Below, one piece after another: positions 10,990 to 20,367 of a stretch of DNA of 29,892 bases. Below the pieces are notes generated by a model, which was not told the DNA's origin, did not search any database, and saw only the letters and a program-made list of their open reading frames with translations. The position numbers were made by a program, and so were the translations under genes. The stretch's first letter is position 1, and every line of letters starts with the position of its first letter. This stretch comes from an uncultured archaeon (GTDB lineage: Archaea; Thermoproteota; Bathyarchaeia; TCS64), in contig CBDUMJ010000001.1 of assembly GCA_965368285.1 (NCBI GenBank), forward strand, positions 1 to 29,892. Direction: 5' to 3'.

Positions 10990-11102
10990 ACCACACTTTT
11001 TCTATTTACTCATACCCAATGTCAAGTCTTACTCTTATGGAATTTTTACGTGCTTAACCGCTTCTACTCAAAAGTTGCTCAACCCTATAGGCGCCATTCG
11101 AC

Positions 11103-11122
11103 CTCAAACCCTTGATTTTATT
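11103..11122 (-). repeat. 20-bp element AATAAAATCAAGGGTTTGAG, inverted partner of 15387-15406
   Basis: 19/20 identical to 15387-15406; upstream AAAA(T)GCAC also shared. Confidence 0.75.
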
Positions 11123-11242
11123 GTGAACGTGCTTTTTGCCTGGTTACGGAATTGTGTGACTGGTAGTTTCTAAGCGCGCCAATTTGTTATTTATAAGCGT
11201 ACTATTTGGGCGTGACAACGTGACTTGGCCCCTTCTAACGCG

Positions 11243-11440
11243 ACGTGACTTTTCCAACAGCTCTCTTAACGCGTACTTAACACAGCTCGGTTAACGCGTA
11301 TTGGTTCCTTCCAACACAACACGACGTGAACGTGACTTTTCTAACAGCTCTCTTAACGTGTACTAGCACAGCTCTCTTAACGCGTACTGGTTCCTTTTCA
11401 ACATAACGTGACTTTTTCTAACAGCCCCCCAAACGCGTAC
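11243..11440. repeat. Nested direct repeats (iteron-like), candidate replication origin
   Basis: ACGTGACTTTT units at 11243, 11330, 11406; five copies of ACAGCTCTCTTAACGCGTACT-like 20-21-mers at 11257, 11282, 11344, 11368, 11421; located at the gene-strand switch. Confidence 0.8.
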
Positions 11441-11471
11441 TAAGCAAAAATATATTAAAATTAAATATATA

Positions 11472-11510
11472 AAATTTAGTAATATATTAAGTTAATATAT
11501 TACTAAATTT
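11472..11510. repeat. Perfect 19-bp inverted repeat with 1-nt spacer, AT-rich
   Basis: AAATTTAGTAATATATTAA-G-TTAATATATTACTAAATTT. Confidence 0.95.
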
Positions 11511-11517
11511 ACACGAA

Positions 11518-11563
11518 GGCCAAGGCCAGTAAATCTGGCCTAATCCAGGCCGGAAAGGAGGTG
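11518..11563 (+). promoter_or_regulatory. Structured leader element copy 1 + SD
   Basis: GGCC-AA-GGCCAG(TAAAT)CTGGCC-TAATCCA-GGCC-GGAAAGGAGGTG. Confidence 0.8.
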
Positions 11564-11569
11564 AAAACC

Positions 11570-11869
11570 ATGGCGAACCTGAAAGAACTCATCGGCAAGG
11601 CCCTACAGGAGCAAGGCCAGCAAGGCGGCGGGCACATCACTGCCATGCGCCAACTCCTGGGCAAAATCGAGCGCGAGCATGGCCGCGAGGTGATCAGGCA
11701 ACTCAGGCCCTCTGGGTTCCGCCTGATCTTCGCAGCAGTCCACCCTGACTTGGCAAAGAAGGTCGGGAACCAGCACGAGTACGCCTGCCAGCTGAACCAC
11801 TACAAGGCCAACAACGACTTCAAGTATGACAGGGTCAACAAGACTTGGATCGACACTAGGGCTAAATAA
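11570..11869 (+). CDS. Hypothetical protein, paralog of 16181-16516; GC-rich codon usage
   Basis: ATG 6 nt after SD (track GTG at 11561 lies inside the SD); LKELIGKAL...GHITAMRQL...LRPSGFR. Confidence 0.85.
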   Translation: MANLKELIGKALQEQGQQGGGHITAMRQLLGKIEREHGREVIRQLRPSGFRLIFAAVHPDLAKKVGNQHEYACQLNHYKANNDFKYDRVNKTWIDTRAK

Positions 11870-11870
11870 T

Positions 11871-11908
11871 CCCGCCCAGGGCCCCGGCGGGAAAAGGTAA
11901 AGGGGCCC
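11871..11908 (+). ncRNA. Predicted H-type RNA pseudoknot 1 (3' of the 11570 gene)
   Basis: S1 CCCGCC/GGCGGG, L1 CA, S2 GGGCCCC/GGGGCCC, L2 0 nt, L3 AAAAGGTAAA. Confidence 0.7.
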
Positions 11909-11940
11909 AGTAAAGAAATGACCCGTTCAGGGGATTGCGA

Positions 11941-11985
11941 CTGGCCCGGGCCCATCCAGGCCAATCTAGGGTCAGAAAGGAGGTG
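11941..11985 (+). promoter_or_regulatory. Structured leader element copy 2 + SD
   Basis: CTGGCCC-G-GGCC(CATCCA)GGCC-AATCTA-GGGTCAG-AAAGGAGGTG. Confidence 0.75.
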
Positions 11986-11992
11986 GAGGAAG

Positions 11993-12280
11993 ATGATGTT
12001 AAGGTTCATAGAGGCGGGTGATGGCCCCTTCGAGGGTACTCACGCCGTAGATATAGGTGTTGAGACCACACGAGGGGAGCGAATCAGCGCGCGGCTCTTC
12101 TTCGGCAAGAAGGGTTTCGCAATCGACAACCTGATCTATCAGAGAACCGCTGAGTCATCAAAAGTATGCGTCAAGAGCCTTAGTGATCTCGATTGCGCGT
12201 CCTTGGAAGCACGTGATTGGGTTGTGTCAATGTTCGGGATTGAGACTGGCATAGAAGAGGAGGTGGAGGAAGATGAATGA
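11993..12280 (+). CDS. Hypothetical acidic protein
   Basis: ATG after leader SD; track start 11918 reads through the leader element. Confidence 0.75.
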   Translation: MMLRFIEAGDGPFEGTHAVDIGVETTRGERISARLFFGKKGFAIDNLIYQRTAESSKVCVKSLSDLDCASLEARDWVVSMFGIETGIEEEVEEDE

Positions 12281-12446
12281 AGGCTTTAAAGTAGGTGATA
12301 GGGTTACTGTTGTAGACCACCCTGATGACCATTATAACGGGGTGGAAGGGGAAATCGTGTTCATTCACGGAGGTTCTTGTCTAGTGGAGAATGATACTAC
12401 AGTCTATGAACTGAGACTGGATTGGTTAAAGTCTAAAGAGGATTGA
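12273..12446 (+). CDS. Small KOW/SH3-like beta-barrel protein (57 aa, below the track cutoff)
   Basis: Own translation MNEGFKVGDRVTVVDHPDDHYNGVEGEIVFIHGGSCLVENDTTVYELRLDWLKSKED; GGAGG SD; overlaps upstream stop. Confidence 0.7.
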   Translation: MNEGFKVGDRVTVVDHPDDHYNGVEGEIVFIHGGSCLVENDTTVYELRLDWLKSKED

Positions 12447-12448
12447 GG

Positions 12449-12498
12449 CTGACCCAGGTACCCGCGCGGGTACCTAATCCAAGGTCAGGAAGGAGGTG
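12449..12498 (+). promoter_or_regulatory. Structured leader element copy 3 + SD
   Basis: CTGACC-CA-GGTACCC(GCGC)GGGTACC-TAATCCAA-GGTCAG-GAAGGAGGTG. Confidence 0.85.
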
Positions 12499-12506
12499 AA
12501 AGAGCT

Positions 12507-13031
12507 GTGGAGCGCCAGGAATACTTAATTCGAAAGAAAGACGGCAGAGAATTCAAAGTAATCGTCGAGCTGGAACCTGAGCCTACACCTGTAATGGAAC
12601 CTGACCTTACTGACCTGATCGAGGAAGCCTTAGAAAAGAAGGCTTCCAAGTCGAGGTGGCCACTGGGCCCTACACAAAAGATTCGGTTCAGAGGAAGGAC
12701 AAGGAGGATCATGCGGCTGCAGTACATACAGGCATTTGGAATCTGGGGTGCGTTGGAAGTACTAAACATGAGGCCGAAAGAGACACCGAAGGAAGAGTTG
12801 AACATCGACATGAAAGACCCGTTAGGAAAGCTGATCGCGGAAGCCCTTAAAGGAAAGAAAAGAGGGCGGCCGCGGAAGAAAGTGGAGTCGCGTGTTCTAC
12901 CGGGAACGAAGATTGGAGACATGTATCAGAAGTGGGGAGAATTCACGTGCGACTGGAAAGATAAACCGGACTCAGAAATAGACGTTGGGACGATGGAAGT
13001 GATAGAAAGTCTATTATACGGAAATGAATAA
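12507..13031 (+). CDS. Hypothetical protein with AT-hook-like KRGRPRKK motif
   Basis: GTG after SD; LTDLIEEALEKK and LGKLIAEALKGK resemble the N-termini of the 11570/16181 proteins. Confidence 0.75.
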   Translation: MERQEYLIRKKDGREFKVIVELEPEPTPVMEPDLTDLIEEALEKKASKSRWPLGPTQKIRFRGRTRRIMRLQYIQAFGIWGALEVLNMRPKETPKEELNIDMKDPLGKLIAEALKGKKRGRPRKKVESRVLPGTKIGDMYQKWGEFTCDWKDKPDSEIDVGTMEVIESLLYGNE

Positions 13032-13075
13032 CCGTTGTGGCTCCGGTAAAAGAATCTGAGCCACGGAGGGAGGTG
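13032..13075 (+). promoter_or_regulatory. Variant leader element (long outer stem, no inner hairpin) + SD
   Basis: GTGGCTC-CGGTAAAAG-AATCT-GAGCCAC-GGAGGGAGGTG. Confidence 0.55.
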
Positions 13076-13080
13076 AGGAG

Positions 13081-13341
13081 ATGAAGAGATGTAAGAAGTG
13101 TGGAAAACCGATTCCAGAATGGGTGGAGATATGCCCAGAGTGTGCACCTCTTCGCGTGGAAGAGGTGGTTGCGTCGGTTTTCTACATCAATGAAGATGGG
13201 GTCCAGAAGGTAGAGAACTTCACAGATGGGAGCGAAGATGGGTTGGAAGAAGCAGTAAAGTTCTTCGAGCAGTGCCCAGGGAGGGCCAGGTTGGTAGTAA
13301 AGGATCCAATTGAATCATGGAGACGAGTAAAGGAGAAGTGA
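13081..13341 (+). CDS. Zinc-ribbon protein
   Basis: N-terminal CKKC...CPEC; SD upstream. Confidence 0.8.
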   Translation: MKRCKKCGKPIPEWVEICPECAPLRVEEVVASVFYINEDGVQKVENFTDGSEDGLEEAVKFFEQCPGRARLVVKDPIESWRRVKEK

Positions 13342-13342
13342 G

Positions 13343-13600
13343 ATGCCGTATAGAGTACAGGAAGTCGGTTCCCCACTACGAGCCTATAACGGTACCTTGC
13401 TCTGTACTAGTACATTAGAAGAAGCAAGGGTGGTACAGGAGCAGTGGTATGGTGAAGATGTGGACCTCTATGAGGTTCACGGGTATGTAGTGGAAAGCTT
13501 CGAGGAAAAATACTGGTTGGATAACAATAATTTTGTGAAGGTAAGAGCGGTCCTACTCCGACCTAAAAGGATTATAAAGGTTGGAGTAGTGCCGATTTGA
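13343..13600 (+). CDS. Hypothetical protein (weak ADP-ribosyltransferase-fold pattern)
   Basis: ORF directly after the previous stop; YR...CTST...LYEV pattern. Confidence 0.7.
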   Translation: MPYRVQEVGSPLRAYNGTLLCTSTLEEARVVQEQWYGEDVDLYEVHGYVVESFEEKYWLDNNNFVKVRAVLLRPKRIIKVGVVPI

Positions 13601-13615
13601 AAGGAGGTGAAAAAG

Positions 13616-13732
13616 ATGTTAGAGAAATACCAAGAAATCGGTCCGGTAGTTGTAGGCGTTAAGAACGTGCATTACTTCATGGTTTGGTTCTTTAAGGGTC
13701 GCGCAACAGTAGTCGCGTTCTTAAAGAAGTAA
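13616..13732 (+). CDS. Small hydrophobic protein (38 aa, below the track cutoff)
   Basis: AAAGGAGGTGA SD; MLEKYQEIGPVVVGVKNVHYFMVWFFKGRATVVAFLKK; fills the gap up to the next leader. Confidence 0.65.
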   Translation: MLEKYQEIGPVVVGVKNVHYFMVWFFKGRATVVAFLKK

Positions 13733-13735
13733 GCA

Positions 13736-13778
13736 GCCCAGGACCAAGAGGTCCTAATCCAAGGCCAGAAAGGAGGTG
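13736..13778 (+). promoter_or_regulatory. Structured leader element copy 4 + SD
   Basis: GCC-CA-GGACC(AAGA)GGTCC-TAATCCAA-GGC-CAGAAAGGAGGTG. Confidence 0.85.
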
Positions 13779-13783
13779 AGGAG

Positions 13784-13975
13784 ATGAAGTCGAAAGTATT
13801 AAATGAAGTGATTCGCGTCGGGAACGTTTTAGAGAAAGCGGAGACGAGGCTGGAGCGGATAATAGATGAGGTTGACGACGCGAAAGCAAGGGAGTATCTT
13901 ACCGAAGCTCACGACAAAGTAGTGGAGGCGTGGGCGACGTTGGTAACATTAGTCACAGAAGAGAAAGCAAAGTAA
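13784..13975 (+). CDS. Small helical-hairpin (coiled-coil) protein
   Basis: ATG after leader SD; amphipathic heptads. Confidence 0.75.
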   Translation: MKSKVLNEVIRVGNVLEKAETRLERIIDEVDDAKAREYLTEAHDKVVEAWATLVTLVTEEKAK

Positions 13976-14016
13976 GCCTGGGCCAAAGGTCCTAATCTAA
14001 GGCTGGAAAGGAGGTG
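13975..14016 (+). promoter_or_regulatory. Structured leader element copy 5 + SD
   Basis: AGCCT-GGGCC(AAA)GGTCC-TAATCTA-AGGCT-GGAAAGGAGGTG. Confidence 0.85.
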
Positions 14017-14022
14017 GGTGTT

Positions 14023-14448
14023 GTGAGGTTGTTTACGACTGTACCATGTTCTATGATAAGTCTACAACAAATCCTGAAAGATGGAGTACCACCTGGTTCT
14101 GATACTGCTAACGGGCATGATGTTGTACTCGTTTCAGCAATTGAGTTCCCACTATTAAATGAACCTACTTGGGTAGTGGAGTTTGAGGTTGAGCCTACAG
14201 AAGTCTACTTTGATTGCGACGATGGTAGTGAAATAATAAATCAGCTTCCACTTGAGGAGCAAAAGATTGACTGGAGTGATAAACCGTTAGCTACAGTACT
14301 TAGTAAGTATAATGATGTTGAAGTACGTACTGGTTATGGGTTGTATGTCAAACGTGTAAAACCGGAACAGGTGAAGAGAGTGACGTTTCAGTTACATTTG
14401 GATTCGGATTTGAGTACAACACATATTAGAATGGACTTAACAGCCTAG
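14023..14448 (+). CDS. Hypothetical protein, possible ART/Tpt1-like fold
   Basis: Likely GTG start at 14023 (track GTG is inside the SD); RLFTT...LQQILKDGVPP, WVVEFEV, VKPEQVKRV. Confidence 0.7.
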   Translation: MRLFTTVPCSMISLQQILKDGVPPGSDTANGHDVVLVSAIEFPLLNEPTWVVEFEVEPTEVYFDCDDGSEIINQLPLEEQKIDWSDKPLATVLSKYNDVEVRTGYGLYVKRVKPEQVKRVTFQLHLDSDLSTTHIRMDLTA

Positions 14449-14486
14449 GACCAAAAAGGTCCTAATCTAAGGCTGGAAAGGAGGTG
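14441..14486 (+). promoter_or_regulatory. Structured leader element copy 6 + SD
   Basis: CAGCCT-A-GGACC(AAAAA)GGTCC-TAATCTA-AGGCTG-GAAAGGAGGTG; overlaps the upstream stop codon. Confidence 0.85.
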
Positions 14487-14491
14487 AGGGA

Positions 14492-14896
14492 ATGAAGCTC
14501 GATCTAGGTTCGGGACCAAAAGAATACTGGGTAGAGGACACCCCAGACTGGATCCATTTGGACTGCGAGAAGTATGACGGAGTCGTGGAGTGGAGGTGTC
14601 CTGATCGGATTCCGGTTGGGGATGAGTCTACCGATGAGGTTTACATAGGGCAACTATTGATAGCGTTAGACAAAATCGCGCGTGCGGAGTTGGCGCGCGA
14701 GTTAGATAGAGTATGTAAAGTTGGCGCGGTTTTACAGGTTCATTGTTATGGAGATGAAAGAAGTGGAGTTGGAGTATGGAGAGAGTTCTTCGATCTGCTA
14801 GAGTGTAGAGGATGGACATTAGTAAAGGAGGAACCGGTTAACAAATGGGAAAGAGGTTATACCTATATGATCAAACTAATAAAGAGACCCGCTTAG
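14492..14896 (+). CDS. Class I SAM-dependent methyltransferase-like protein
   Basis: KLDLGSG motif I, WIHLD, IPVGDESTDEVY, ELDRVCKVGAVLQV. Confidence 0.7.
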   Translation: MKLDLGSGPKEYWVEDTPDWIHLDCEKYDGVVEWRCPDRIPVGDESTDEVYIGQLLIALDKIARAELARELDRVCKVGAVLQVHCYGDERSGVGVWREFFDLLECRGWTLVKEEPVNKWERGYTYMIKLIKRPA

Positions 14897-14945
14897 AGGG
14901 GATTGAGCAGCGTTATATAGTTTCTATAAGGAACTATATACAATG

Positions 14946-14989
14946 GGCCTGGGACCAAAAGGTCCTAATCTAAGGCTGGAAAGGAGGTG
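14946..14989 (+). promoter_or_regulatory. Structured leader element copy 7 + SD
   Basis: GGCCT-G-GGACC(AAAA)GGTCC-TAATCTA-AGGCT-GGAAAGGAGGTG. Confidence 0.85.
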
Positions 14990-14998
14990 AGAGAGAAA

Positions 14999-15343
14999 GT
15001 GGACTACAGGGACATCATCAACCAGTTCATGCAGGAAGTGAGAGCGGAACCTGGGTTACTAGAGAAGCTGAAAGGGAAACCAGTCTGTGTTTGGACTAGA
15101 GTGATTTGTGACTACGCTGAACTGAAAGAGTTGACAAAGACACCTAGAGTGAAGTTATACCGTCAAGTTTATAGTTGGCTACGACACCGGATCACCTATG
15201 AACCGAAACCGAAAGAGGACAAAGAACAGCCGTGGGGCAAGTTGGACCCACGAAAGAGAGCGTATCAGATTACGGAAGCGCGGTACACCCGAATTGAAGT
15301 AGAAGCGGTTAATAAAGCACTATTTCAACGTCAGGATGAGTAA
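14999..15343 (+). CDS. Hypothetical protein
   Basis: Likely GTG start 9 nt after SD (track GTG 14987 is inside the SD). Confidence 0.75.
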   Translation: MDYRDIINQFMQEVRAEPGLLEKLKGKPVCVWTRVICDYAELKELTKTPRVKLYRQVYSWLRHRITYEPKPKEDKEQPWGKLDPRKRAYQITEARYTRIEVEAVNKALFQRQDE

Positions 15344-15365
15344 GTGGTTGGCACGAAATTTCTGG

Positions 15366-15394
15366 TTGATGTGAAAATGCACCTGTAATAAAAT
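15366..15394 (+). promoter_or_regulatory. Possible sigma70-type promoter
   Basis: TTGATG-N17-TAAAAT; overlaps the 20-bp repeat, so either reading could be incidental. Confidence 0.35.
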
Positions 15395-15406
15395 CAAGGG
15401 GTTGAG
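15387..15406 (+). repeat. 20-bp element AATAAAATCAAGGGGTTGAG, partner of 11103-11122 (opposite strand)
   Basis: 19/20 identity. Confidence 0.75.
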
Positions 15407-15413
15407 CTCGGGG

Positions 15414-15518
15414 TGCTCACTTAGGCTGAGCAACTTTTGAGTAGAAACAGTTAAGCACTGGAACTCTACTTTGACAAAACCCTGCCTTAGGTCTCGCTTT
15501 GGTGAGGCCAGGCAGGGT
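15414..15518 (+). ncRNA. Candidate small RNA of three consecutive hairpins
   Basis: TGCTCA/TGAGCA (15414-15432); AGTAGA/TCTACT with inner CAGT/ACTG (15440-15470); ACCCTGCCT/AGGCAGGGT with inner GGTCTC/GAGGCC (15479-15518); ORF-free gap. Confidence 0.4.
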
Positions 15519-15552
15519 AATGAAAGGAAAAGCTGGTTTGTTTGTGAAGGTT

Positions 15553-15591
15553 TAATTTTATTTTATATAAATTTTTATTTTTTAAAACGTT
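15553..15591 (+). promoter_or_regulatory. 39-bp AT-rich element, copy A (candidate promoter)
   Basis: 38/39 identical to 16088-16126; contains TTTATATA; immediately 5' of an SD. Confidence 0.7.
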
Positions 15592-15605
15592 AGGAGGTGT
15601 CGTTT

Positions 15606-15878
15606 GTGACAGATGGGTACAAACTAAGGGAGATAAAGACAGTTGATGATCTGGGTGAAACTGGAAACATTTGGTGGTTGGAGCTGTATGAGTTCGAGGA
15701 CCTCAAAGGCAAGTATGTGATTGATGATCGTCAGGCAACTACCTATGACCCAGAAGGATCCAAGATGGTTGAAGTGGTTCTGAGTGTCAACAATGTGATT
15801 TATGATGTAGAAGCAGAAGTGGACATAGTAGGCAACGAGTTGTACATTGCAGAGGAAGAGATCGACCGGATAATCTAG
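15606..15878 (+). CDS. Acidic hypothetical protein
   Basis: GTG after AGGAGGTG SD (track start is inside the SD). Confidence 0.75.
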   Translation: MTDGYKLREIKTVDDLGETGNIWWLELYEFEDLKGKYVIDDRQATTYDPEGSKMVEVVLSVNNVIYDVEAEVDIVGNELYIAEEEIDRII

Positions 15879-15903
15879 TCAAACTAAGAGGAGGTGAAGA
15901 AGA

Positions 15904-16080
15904 GTGCATATAGAGGAAGAAGAGATGGAAGAGGTATATCAGGCATTAGAGAAGCTACTGTGTAAAAAGTTGGAAGAGCTTGGGCATGATAAGATGTCAG
16001 AGTGTGTAGAAGAACTGGATAAGGAGTTAGCTTATTGGATTAACAAGTACTTGGACGGTTGGGGTTCTTACTACCTGTAG
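15904..16080 (+). CDS. Small acidic helical protein (58 aa, below the track cutoff)
   Basis: AGGAGGTGA SD; MHIEEEEMEEVYQALEKLLCKKLEELGHDKMSECVEELDKELAYWINKYLDGWGSYYL. Confidence 0.7.
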   Translation: MHIEEEEMEEVYQALEKLLCKKLEELGHDKMSECVEELDKELAYWINKYLDGWGSYYL

Positions 16081-16087
16081 TCAGGCA

Positions 16088-16126
16088 TAATTTTATTTTA
16101 TATAAAATTTTATTTTTTAAAACGTT
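16088..16126 (+). promoter_or_regulatory. 39-bp AT-rich element, copy B
   Basis: 38/39 identical to copy A; directly precedes leader copy 8. Confidence 0.7.
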
Positions 16127-16131
16127 TGGAA

Positions 16132-16174
16132 CAGCTTGGACCTTTAGTCCAAATCCAGGCTGTGAAAGGAGGTG
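16132..16174 (+). promoter_or_regulatory. Structured leader element copy 8 + SD
   Basis: CAGCT-TGGAC(CTTTA)GTCCA-AATCCA-GGCTG-TGAAAGGAGGTG. Confidence 0.8.
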
Positions 16175-16180
16175 AAAAGA

Positions 16181-16516
16181 ATGGCGGAGGCAAAGAAAAC
16201 TGGCATTATGACCGTAAAAGAATCTGAGAAGGAAGCTACTGTGGATCTGAAATCTCTCGTGGACGCAGCATTAGAGAAGAAGAACGGTCAGTCTCAGTTG
16301 GGCCACACCACCTACATGCGCGATTTGGCAGCAAGGATCATAAAGGATAAAGGTCCTGAGGTCTTCAAGAAGTTAGGTCCAACTGGATTCCGGAAAGTAT
16401 GTATCCTCATGTTCAAGAACGAGAAGCCTGAGTTGTGGAAGAGAGTGCAAGAGAAAGTGAAGATGTCAACCTTGAAGGCAGAGATGCAGAAGGCTTACTA
16501 CGATGCACAAGAGTAG
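16181..16516 (+). CDS. Hypothetical protein, paralog of 11570-11869
   Basis: LKSLVDAAL...GHTTYMRDL...LGPTGFR aligns with the 11570 product. Confidence 0.85.
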   Translation: MAEAKKTGIMTVKESEKEATVDLKSLVDAALEKKNGQSQLGHTTYMRDLAARIIKDKGPEVFKKLGPTGFRKVCILMFKNEKPELWKRVQEKVKMSTLKAEMQKAYYDAQE

Positions 16517-16525
16517 TAGGCCTTT

Positions 16526-16565
16526 TACCGCTGTGCCACCGTGGCGGTATATAAAACAACGGTGG
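16526..16565 (+). ncRNA. Predicted H-type RNA pseudoknot 2 (3' of the 16181 gene)
   Basis: S1 TACCGCT/GGCGGTA, L1 GTG, S2 CCACCGT/ACGGTGG, L2 0 nt, L3 TATAAAACA. Confidence 0.7.
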
Positions 16566-16620
16566 GCTAAAGTTCGTGCATCGAACTATAATATTAGGAA
16601 AAAGCTGGGAGGTTTAATCG

Positions 16621-17487
16621 ATGCATGAACTCAAACTAATATCAAAGGCCGGTAGAGAGCGTTATTATGCTTTTAAGCCGCTGCAAAAGGTATTGCCTAA
16701 GTTATCAGAAGCTGATTATGAAGATCTTAAGGAGGCCATTGGAAAGAACGGACTCACGGAGTCTATCAAAGTCGTGAAGCTGGACAGGAACCGGTATGTC
16801 ATCTTAGACGGAGTGCATAGATTCAAAGCCGTTGAGGAGCTTGGTTGGCTCAACACAGCAAGATCCAAAGTCAAGGTGGAGTTTGTCGAAGCCAAAAAGG
16901 AAGACTGGTTCCGAATTGGGCTTATGATGAACTTAAACGCAAAGAGAGGTAGGCAGATAAAGAAGAGGGATTTGGTCAAAGCACTCTACAAAAAGTATAA
17001 AGAGAGAGTGAAGGAGCCACGTGTTGAAGAGTTTAGGAAGGAGCTGGAGTCATATGGGTTGCATCTGGCGTTAGAGACTGTGAAATCGTATGTACATAGT
17101 GCATTTAAGCCAGAGCATCACGGTCAGAGATCAAAGCAGCTGCAGGCCCCCAGGGGCCTGCATCCCAAACCAAGGTCAGAAACTAGAGACTCTGCAGGCC
17201 CCCAGGGGCCTGCTGTAGAACAAGAAACGCACGATATTAGTACAGATCCAAGCCCTGATGCTGACGTGGGGTCTGAAAGTGCACAAATATCAACAGATGC
17301 AAGACTGAGCAATTCCACGATCCTACTCAACATGAACAGTGTTGCAAACCAACTCGACACAAACGTTGAAGAGCTCATCAAGTGTCTTTTCGAGCTGGCA
17401 CCGGACCTTCAGAAAGCTGCAAAGCGGTTCAATGAAACTCCATTGGACATGTTACGCAAGTGTGTTGAAGCATTGAAAAAGATATAG
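16621..17487 (+). CDS. ParB/Sulfiredoxin N-terminal domain protein
   Basis: LPKLSEADYEDLKEAIGKNGL...IKVV...YVILDGVHRFKAVEELG; low-complexity linker; helical C-terminus. Confidence 0.85.
   Translation: MHELKLISKAGRERYYAFKPLQKVLPKLSEADYEDLKEAIGKNGLTESIKVVKLDRNRYVILDGVHRFKAVEELGWLNTARSKVKVEFVEAKKEDWFRIGLMMNLNAKRGRQIKKRDLVKALYKKYKERVKEPRVEEFRKELESYGLHLALETVKSYVHSAFKPEHHGQRSKQLQAPRGLHPKPRSETRDSAGPQGPAVEQETHDISTDPSPDADVGSESAQISTDARLSNSTILLNMNSVANQLDTNVEELIKCLFELAPDLQKAAKRFNETPLDMLRKCVEALKKI
17140..17213. repeat. Two identical 22-bp palindromes inside the ParB-like gene (candidate parS-like sites)
   Basis: CTGCAGGCCCCCAGGGGCCTGC at 17140-17161 and 17192-17213, read in different frames; 9-bp arms, 2-nt spacer. 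Confidence 0.85.
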
Positions 17488-20092: not shown

Positions 20093-20116
20093 GAGCGCAT
20101 GAAGTGCGTGTGGACT

Positions 20117-20154
20117 AAATTTTTTAATTTAAAAAAATTTAATTTTAAAATGTT
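20117..20154 (+). promoter_or_regulatory. AT-rich element, diverged third copy
   Basis: Ends TTTTAAAATGTT-AGGAGGTG like copy A (TTTTAAAACGTT-AGGAGGTG); dyad AAATTTTTT/AAAAAATTT. Confidence 0.5.
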
Positions 20155-20169
20155 AGGAGGTGAGAGGAA

Positions 20170-20367
20170 ATGCCAGCGTTCACTATTTGGGACAAAGAGG
20201 ATATAGATCATGACGAGGATTTGAGGACGGATTTTAAGGGCGCTGAGTTTGTAGTCCAGTTCCCAGCTCATTTGAGAGTAGCTCCATGCGGATGCTGGGT
20301 GTGTGAGGTAGTAACCCCGTTTGGTAATGTTACTCTAGCTGCATACAAATGTGGACAACATATGTAG
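20170..20367 (+). CDS. Hypothetical protein
   Basis: AGGAGGTGA SD. Confidence 0.7.
   Translation: MPAFTIWDKEDIDHDEDLRTDFKGAEFVVQFPAHLRVAPCGCWVCEVVTPFGNVTLAAYKCGQHM

Follow-up and report, generated by a model that had tools for sequence, protein, structure and literature searches.

A four-part viral gene module that may be a stack of separable expression signals: a covarying leader RNA and 3' pseudoknots in a candidate block of early genes in a tailed virus that was binned with an archaeal genome

Phages carry operator and processing hairpins, such as the coat protein operators of MS2 and PP7, the targets of RegA and RegB in T4, and the early RNase III sites of T7, which give coordinated post-transcriptional control. 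H-type pseudoknots with an A-rich loop 3 are known both as viral recoding knots and as decay-resistant 3' elements. To our knowledge, how archaeal viruses control gene expression after transcription has hardly been studied. In one archaeal virus, a virus-specific upstream element and a strong TATA-type promoter are common to many small early genes; a small regulator gene has the same element, and the genes are proposed to counter host defence (PMC11065993). Here, we analyzed a 29,892-nucleotide (nt) stretch of DNA, referred to as the window, which is the whole of contig C1 (CBDUMJ010000001.1) of a metagenome-assembled genome (MAG; GCA_965368285.1) assigned to an uncultured archaeon of the Bathyarchaeia. 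At two sites on its + strand, we found the same layout that a sequence-only reading of the window had described: an AT-rich block, a two-stem bulged leader, a gene for one of two paralogous proteins (p1 and p2), and an H-type pseudoknot. Our preferred explanation, to which as a whole we give roughly even chances, is that the early genes of a tailed virus form a block at positions 11437-16565 and that the four-part module consists of separable expression signals in a stack and is not a dedicated protein-RNA pair.

Like the archaeal virus system described previously (PMC11065993), the locus has many small early genes with a common virus-specific upstream element, a small candidate regulator gene among them. 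In that virus, however, the shared element is DNA around the transcription factor B recognition element (BRE)/TATA core, whereas here it is a covarying RNA hairpin set against the Shine-Dalgarno (SD) sequence; it also lies 3' of the promoter or between cistrons, with promoter blocks at four sites only. Minimum free energy (MFE) folds of the upstream regions gave this leader an outer stem (P1), an inner hairpin (P2), and a bulge of 6-7 nt on the 3' side in which AAUC is invariant, with the SD sequence GAAAGGAGG following 1-3 nt past P1. Because MAFFT put the leader stems out of register (RNAalifold found zero pairs), the seed was registered by hand, and a covariance model (R1) was built from its 18 copies (94% pairing; both partners changed in 8 of the 12 pairs). 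R1 identified eight copies in the window at E < 2e-5 and one weak, simplified copy. All nine lie on the + strand within 11515-16172, and each heads an early gene:

11515-11561, + strand, leader copy 1, before the p1 gene (37.3 bits, E 2e-7; the MFE fold shows P1 and P2)
11940-11983, + strand, leader copy 2, before gene 11993-12280 (36.9 bits)
12448-12496, + strand, leader copy 3, before gene 12507-13031 (51 bits)
13035-13073, + strand, simplified leader, a single stem with AAUC in the loop, before gene 13081-13341 (14.5 bits, E 0.05)
13732-13776, + strand, leader copy before gene 13784-13975 (57.6 bits)
13972-14014, + strand, leader copy before the gene ending at 14448 (53.2 bits)
14439-14484, + strand, leader copy before gene 14492-14896 (69.5 bits)
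14943-14987, + strand, leader copy before the gene ending at 15343 (60.8 bits)
16129-16172, + strand, leader copy 9, before the p2 gene (29.4 bits, E 1.5e-5)

Short intercistronic gaps are occupied by these leaders, and in one case the stop codon of the preceding gene (14446-14448) sits within the leader hairpin (14439-14484). The stem of the simplified leader covaries in the related locus L008. When the rest of the 2.5-Mb MAG was scanned with R1, zero leader copies were found, while 16 related metagenomic loci yielded 55 matches, 36 of them distinct. In the alignment of these matches, 93.9% of cells were paired and 9 of 12 pairs showed double (compensatory) changes. None of 500 shuffles reached the observed values, and sliding the pairing partner by one column left 55-58% of cells paired. 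G-U pairs were frequent and strand specific, and the leader is accordingly an RNA structure on the + strand and not a DNA operator. In a relative in IMG/VR that carries the same region (IMGVR_UViG_3300025163_000238; 131,001 bases, 91% complete), the six leader copies are confined to 4.3 kb of a single strand. As a covarying, virus-specific RNA motif of the whole early block, the leader is new.

Like the phage hairpins, the leader is a bulged hairpin beside or over the ribosome-binding site that is repeated before early cistrons. Unlike them, it belongs to a system with an archaeal host, and it has no sequence or structural similarity to them; a role in cleavage or repression would be suggested by analogy. 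Several other identities for the leader were considered and rejected. By inspection, it is not a K-turn, as it has no tandem G-A pairs, and it is not a bulge-helix-bulge splice motif, as it has a single bulge of 6-7 nt. Pairing of the AAUC bulge with the 3' tail of 16S rRNA would have the wrong order relative to the SD sequence and is lost in the AAUCUA and AAUCAA variants. The presence of AATCCA in a CRISPR repeat of the MAG (contig C86) was judged to be a 6-mer coincidence.

The first part of the module was defined as a block of at least 88% A+T. Just four such blocks occur in the window, each directly 5' of a + strand gene:

11437-11514, + strand, AT-rich block 1, promoter-like with TATA-type sequences, before leader copy 1 and the p1 gene
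15541-15596, + strand, AT-rich block 2, heading gene 15597-15878, which has no leader; TTTATATA at 15562
16081-16132, + strand, AT-rich block 3, before leader copy 9 and the p2 gene; TTTATATA at 16097
20109-20160, AT-rich block 4, with a TTTTAAAATGTTAGGAGG-type end junction like that of block 2, before gene 20170-20367

Blocks 2 and 3 are 92% identical (repeat family D7), and the sequence of block 1 is different. On the + strand of blocks 2 and 3, TTTATATA fits the archaeal TATA consensus, TTTAWATA (PMC11065993). Block 1 has a motif of this type on the opposite strand only, plus other TATA-like runs, and contains a 39-nt inverted repeat (11472-11510) with a 97% match to its own reverse complement. 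No match was obtained within the AT-rich blocks in a sigma-70 promoter scan; such promoters are not expected in an archaeon. Judged by their sequence and placement, the blocks appear to be TATA-type promoters of general use that are not specific to the module, and block 4 is probably a further promoter of the same class, heading 20170-20367.

The sequence-only reading had proposed that the module was duplicated as a unit. This was not supported: the leader heads nine genes, block 3 is the twin of block 2 and not of block 1, and the DNA match between the two modules covers only 38 nt, made up of the 3' half of the leader and the SD sequence. Because block 2 heads an unrelated, leaderless gene and block 1 differs, the promoter part does not appear to have been copied along with the paralog. 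Considering that the promoter block and the leader are general early-gene signals, what looks duplicated is the gene with its 3' pseudoknot and nothing more. The "module" thus comes down to reusable expression signals stacked together, in which the gene and its 3' structure alone look co-inherited.

Three further observations concern the surroundings of these signals. Nested direct repeats, consisting of ACGTGACTTTT boxes and AACGCGTACT cores, lie at 11180-11440, at a switch in gene strand and just 5' of AT-rich block 1; they could represent an origin or an array of operators. A noncoding stretch of about 200 nt (15344-15540) follows the final gene of the first leader block and contains strong hairpins, e.g., CCCTGCCT...AGGCAGGG at ~15481-15518; the first transcription unit may end here. 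Related metagenomic contigs (L004, L006, L011, L015, and L021) often break at AT-rich blocks or within leaders; the repeated signals probably fragment assemblies of this virus group.

At the 3' end of the module, both sites satisfy H-type pseudoknot geometry, and pairing is kept through sequence change:

11870-11908, + strand, pseudoknot 1, directly after the p1 stop codon (stem 1, 7 bp; loop 1, 2 nt; stem 2, 7 bp; loop 2, 0 nt; loop 3, 9 nt, A-rich)
16526-16565, + strand, pseudoknot 2, 9 nt after the p2 stop codon (stem 1, 7 bp; loop 1, 3 nt; stem 2, 7 bp; loop 2, 0 nt; loop 3, 9 nt, A-rich)

These features emerged from a scripted scan of the + strand of the window for H-type knots with two 7-bp stems. 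It returned four knots, compared to a mean of 0.13 in Markov-random windows, and only the two listed above are GC rich; the other two are a low-complexity match in AT-rich block 1 and an AU/GU-rich match in a coding region. Since MAFFT misaligned the knots, their pairs were tallied by script, over just eight distinct sequences, and standard pairs occupied 111 of the 112 stem cells. In orthologues, stem 1 of pseudoknot 1 changes from TCCCGCC/GGCGGGA to CCCCACC/GGTGGGG, which amounts to two compensatory pairs. Between pseudoknots 1 and 2, five of the seven stem 2 pairs differ with pairing kept. That the same pseudoknot geometry follows both paralogs in unrelated sequence argues that the 3' structure is kept under selection.

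The pseudoknot form itself is not constant across the family. Pseudoknot 1 is present in all six p1 variants. Among p2 orthologues, pseudoknot 2 occurs in three variants and a plain GC hairpin in at least three lineages, one of which is the 131-kb virus, so that the expected co-occurrence of the protein family with the pseudoknot stood for p1 and not for p2. Four distant homologues have an AT-rich block upstream, an SD sequence, and a strong 3' hairpin; a T-rich run comes after the hairpin in three of them, and none has the R1 leader. What travels with the gene is therefore a strong promoter, an SD sequence, the gene, and a very stable 3' structure. Pseudoknots stand where relatives have hairpins and, on this comparison of sequences, appear to be one form of a stable 3' element. 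A stable 3' structure, in one form or the other, follows every family member. The independent distribution that would speak against the sequence-only reading is seen for the leader.

Like other knots with an A-rich loop 3, those described here pair through two stems of 7 bp, with few nucleotides in loop 1 and none in loop 2, and their 9-nt loop 3 could lie along the minor groove of stem 1. Unlike recoding or decay-resistant knots, they lie past the stop codon with no conserved downstream frame, are exchangeable with hairpins, and have no match in Rfam. Their resemblance to viral recoding signals, as A-rich loop 3 H-type knots 0-9 nt past a stop codon, raises the question of whether they extend p1 and p2 by stop read-through or frameshifting, and in the window the p1 frame is indeed open from 11870 into gene 11993-12280. 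However, there is a 1-nt indel between the pseudoknot and the next gene in orthologues, the downstream genes differ, and hairpins take the place of pseudoknot 2. Because the frame after the p1 stop is unconserved and p2 ends in two tandem in-frame stops, we consider recoding highly improbable. A read-through fusion of p1 with gene 11993 was rejected, as its frame is not conserved.

The proteins encoded between the leader and the 3' structure are small and basic, and they share a helix motif, LxxL[IV]xxAL, with a third leader-bearing gene:

11570-11869, + strand, gene for p1 (paralog 1; 99 amino acids, pI 9.9), motif at 11579
16181-16516, + strand, gene for p2 (paralog 2; 111 amino acids, pI 9.5), motif at 16247
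12507-13031, + strand, gene for gp12507, motif at 12606 and 12822

The paralogy of p1 and p2 that had been read from the sequence was confirmed by alignment (41% identity over 69 amino acids, E 5e-14). Their family is tiny: a word search found 4 and 13 close relatives of p1 and p2, respectively, and a profile search of 1.84 billion proteins returned eight representatives. Searches of 18 early proteins against Pfam and PHROGs gave nothing informative for p1 or p2, and a protein atlas feature search with p1 gave no usable match. In a six-frame translation of the window, the helix motif occurs exactly four times, once in p1, once in p2, and twice in gp12507, compared to 0.0085 expected after shuffling, and it is kept in seven orthologues. 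The two helices of this kind that had been noted in gp12507 are thus real, and the gene carries leader copy 3; BLASTP found no homology of gp12507 to the two paralogs (E 0.65 and 23). In p1 and p2, the conserved N-terminal helix has low model confidence, and a G/Q-rich linker connects it to the core; as modeled, the helix resembles a short docking motif common with gp12507.

Structure prediction gave a p1 model (predicted local distance difference test [pLDDT] score of 80) made up of helices and a C-terminal beta hairpin. Its best matches were winged-helix DNA-binding domains, including GntR/LutR (Z 5.5, root mean square deviation 2.9, 71 residues). The top Z score was 6.0, and Foldseek matched Fur, MarR, and BrxR at E ~1, all at noise level (Z < 8). 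The p2 model (pLDDT 78.5) consists of helices only, with no wing, and fold comparison gave no match for it. The structural check proposed for the two proteins therefore left p1 weakly winged-helix-like, with no significant match for p1 or p2 in the fold searches and no RNA-binding fold recognised.

The sequence-only reading had favored p1 and p2 as RNA-binding proteins that read the AAUC-bulged leader, their own 3' pseudoknot, or both, in an autoregulatory or anti-defence system. Several features fit this proposal: both proteins are basic, the leader and the pseudoknot are found at both genes, pseudoknots in the window follow these two genes only, the bulged hairpin beside the SD sequence resembles a protein operator, and the LxxL[IV]xxAL helix is common to p1, p2, and a third leader-bearing protein. 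On the other hand, seven further leader-bearing genes lie outside the p1/p2 family, the leader is missing from distant family members and the pseudoknot from several p2 orthologues, and no RNA-binding fold came out of the fold searches. With p1 weakly winged-helix-like and p2 all-helical, the models speak neither for nor against RNA binding, and we regard this account of the module as unlikely. We find it somewhat doubtful that p1 and p2 act on DNA instead, as autorepressors of their own early promoters that resemble anti-CRISPR-associated (Aca) proteins and bind TATA-overlapping palindromes. The near-perfect inverted repeat over the TATA-like sequences of AT-rich block 1 would be a putative binding site, and the best, weak matches of the p1 model are winged-helix domains; the winged-helix Aca8 of Sulfolobus rudiviruses provides a precedent with a proposed mechanism (PMC11065993). 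Yet every structural match is below noise, the wingless p2 model matches nothing, and the inverted repeat is conserved only in part among relatives.

The gap between pseudoknot 1 and leader copy 2 is exactly filled by the first of two CRISPR-repeat-like units:

11909-11941, + strand, CRISPR-repeat-like unit 1, ending in ATTGCGAC (Rfam CRISPR-DR8, 20.9 bits, E 0.016 on 141 nt, sub-threshold)
14877-14908, + strand, CRISPR-repeat-like unit 2, running across the end of gene 14492-14896 (sub-threshold Rfam CRISPR-DR8 match; 24.9 bits, E 0.039 on 5.3 kb)

Both units are in sense orientation, ~2.97 kb apart, and solitary, with no second repeat within 100 bp; module 2 contains no such unit. Relatives of the units end in the canonical handle ATTGAAAC. 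The core pattern of the units recovers genuine arrays with periods of 66-81 nt in bacterial MAGs, one archaeal MAG, and metagenomes, and the variant in L160 has one difference from the array repeat in L211 over the last 28 nt. The core pattern was present in 0 of 400 genomes of the MAG's class. The single CRISPR array found in the MAG (contig C86, 6728-7050) has five repeats of 32-33 nt, starting GTTTCAATCCAC (+ strand), that differ from the window units; its four spacers gave no match to the window. The repeat looks type I-C-like. No host array of the matching repeat family was found (the MAG has 76% completeness, and it is tied to the virus by binning only). Among the matches listed, full-length identity of the units to array repeats was 76-88% (best for unit 1, 26-29 of 33 positions), and this leaves them below the SRUFinder rule, which asks for 90% or more in both identity and coverage against a known CRISPR repeat (PMC10651486).

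As in the solitary repeat units and RNA anti-CRISPRs (Racrs) described in that study, a single sense-oriented, intergenic, repeat-like viral unit with a handle-like 3' end lies adjacent to small early genes. The differences are the identity below 90% among the matches listed, the host array that was not found, and the embedding of the unit between two other RNA structures. By the criteria of that work, the units are a Racr-like lead, short of assignment, and they are possibly an RNA anti-CRISPR or a Cas6 processing site. The location of unit 1 between pseudoknot 1 and leader copy 2 is circumstantial evidence for an anti-defence role. The region might therefore be viewed as an RNA-based anti-CRISPR locus whose units are Racr decoys or Cas6 cleavage sites, with cleavage giving the p1 mRNA a 3' end protected by pseudoknot 1 and placing an 8-nt handle before the next leader. 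The exact fit of unit 1, the two CRISPR-DR8 matches, the handle of the relatives, the genuine arrays defined by the core pattern, and the near-identity of the L160 and L211 sequences all speak for such a locus, as does the known co-transcription of Racrs with acr genes (PMC10651486). We nevertheless judge it quite unlikely, given the identities below the rule among the matches listed, the empty result in the MAG's class, the different repeat and unmatched spacers of the MAG's own array, and the lack of a unit in module 2. Of the anti-defence role suggested in the sequence-only reading, what stands is a plausible setting, namely, strongly promoted small early genes with a CRISPR-repeat-like unit by pseudoknot 1. 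An integrated, RNA-centred system for takeover and anti-defence can also be imagined, in which one viral protein, possibly p1 or p2 through the LxxL[IV]xxAL helix, reads the AAUC-bulged leader and switches nine early cistrons together, host Cas6 cuts or binds the unit, and triple-helix-type pseudoknots protect the resulting 3' end. A Racr decoy, Cas6-dependent mRNA punctuation, and a translational regulon would then be found together in a single operon, but we consider such a system improbable.

Contig C1 is tailed-virus DNA that was binned with an archaeal MAG. It encodes a portal fusion and a large terminase. The MAG (2.5 Mb, 540 contigs, 76% complete) is archaeal, as indicated by the TATA-binding protein (TBP) that it encodes; neither mcrA nor an archaeal 16S gene was found in this 76%-complete assembly. 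A blastn search of 11100-17000 against phage records gave zero matches, and an Rfam scan of the window gave none at the gathering threshold, with CRISPR-DR8 and sR52 the only sub-threshold matches (E up to 5). Gene strand switches at ~11,000-11,450, and all genes are on the + strand from 11,570 on.

Under our preferred explanation, that of a stack of separable signals in an early-gene block, the AT-rich blocks would be strong TATA-type promoters that open four transcription units. The leader, with its two coaxial stems, would mark nine early cistrons as one post-transcriptional set, most likely as a docking site, by the ribosome-binding site, for a single putative trans-acting protein, and most likely also as an mRNA-stabilising hairpin near the 5' end. 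For the promoter-proximal leaders, a transcription start ~25 nt past the TATA-like sequences would put P1 no more than a few bases from the 5' end of the transcript. p1 and p2, which are small, basic, mostly helical proteins with a flexible N-terminal LxxL[IV]xxAL helix, would probably be regulators that bind nucleic acid, and their genes would stand first in two of the transcription units. The 3' structure is most likely a barrier to 3' decay or read-through, and such a barrier would separate the level of the first cistron from that of the downstream genes. Several points weigh against this explanation. The trans-acting reader of the leader is postulated, and transcription starts, processing sites, and 3' ends are predictions from sequence. 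The label "regulator" for p1 and p2 is a guess, since the models do not settle their fold, and the link between virus and host comes from binning alone. Finally, no oligo-T run directly follows pseudoknot 1 or 2, so these are not ordinary archaeal terminators, and for that reason a barrier to decay or read-through is likelier than a classical terminator.

The most solid new facts are the covarying leader on nine early genes, the pseudoknots at hairpin sites, and the helix motif in three proteins. The region combines a covarying early-gene RNA motif, pseudoknots that appear to do the work of 3' hairpins, and a tightly packed CRISPR-repeat-like unit. In this virus group, the leader motif offers a handle for finding early, possibly anti-defence, genes and for catching its reader protein. 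Should the leader prove to be a translational operator, it would parallel, in archaea, the systems by which phages shut off early genes.

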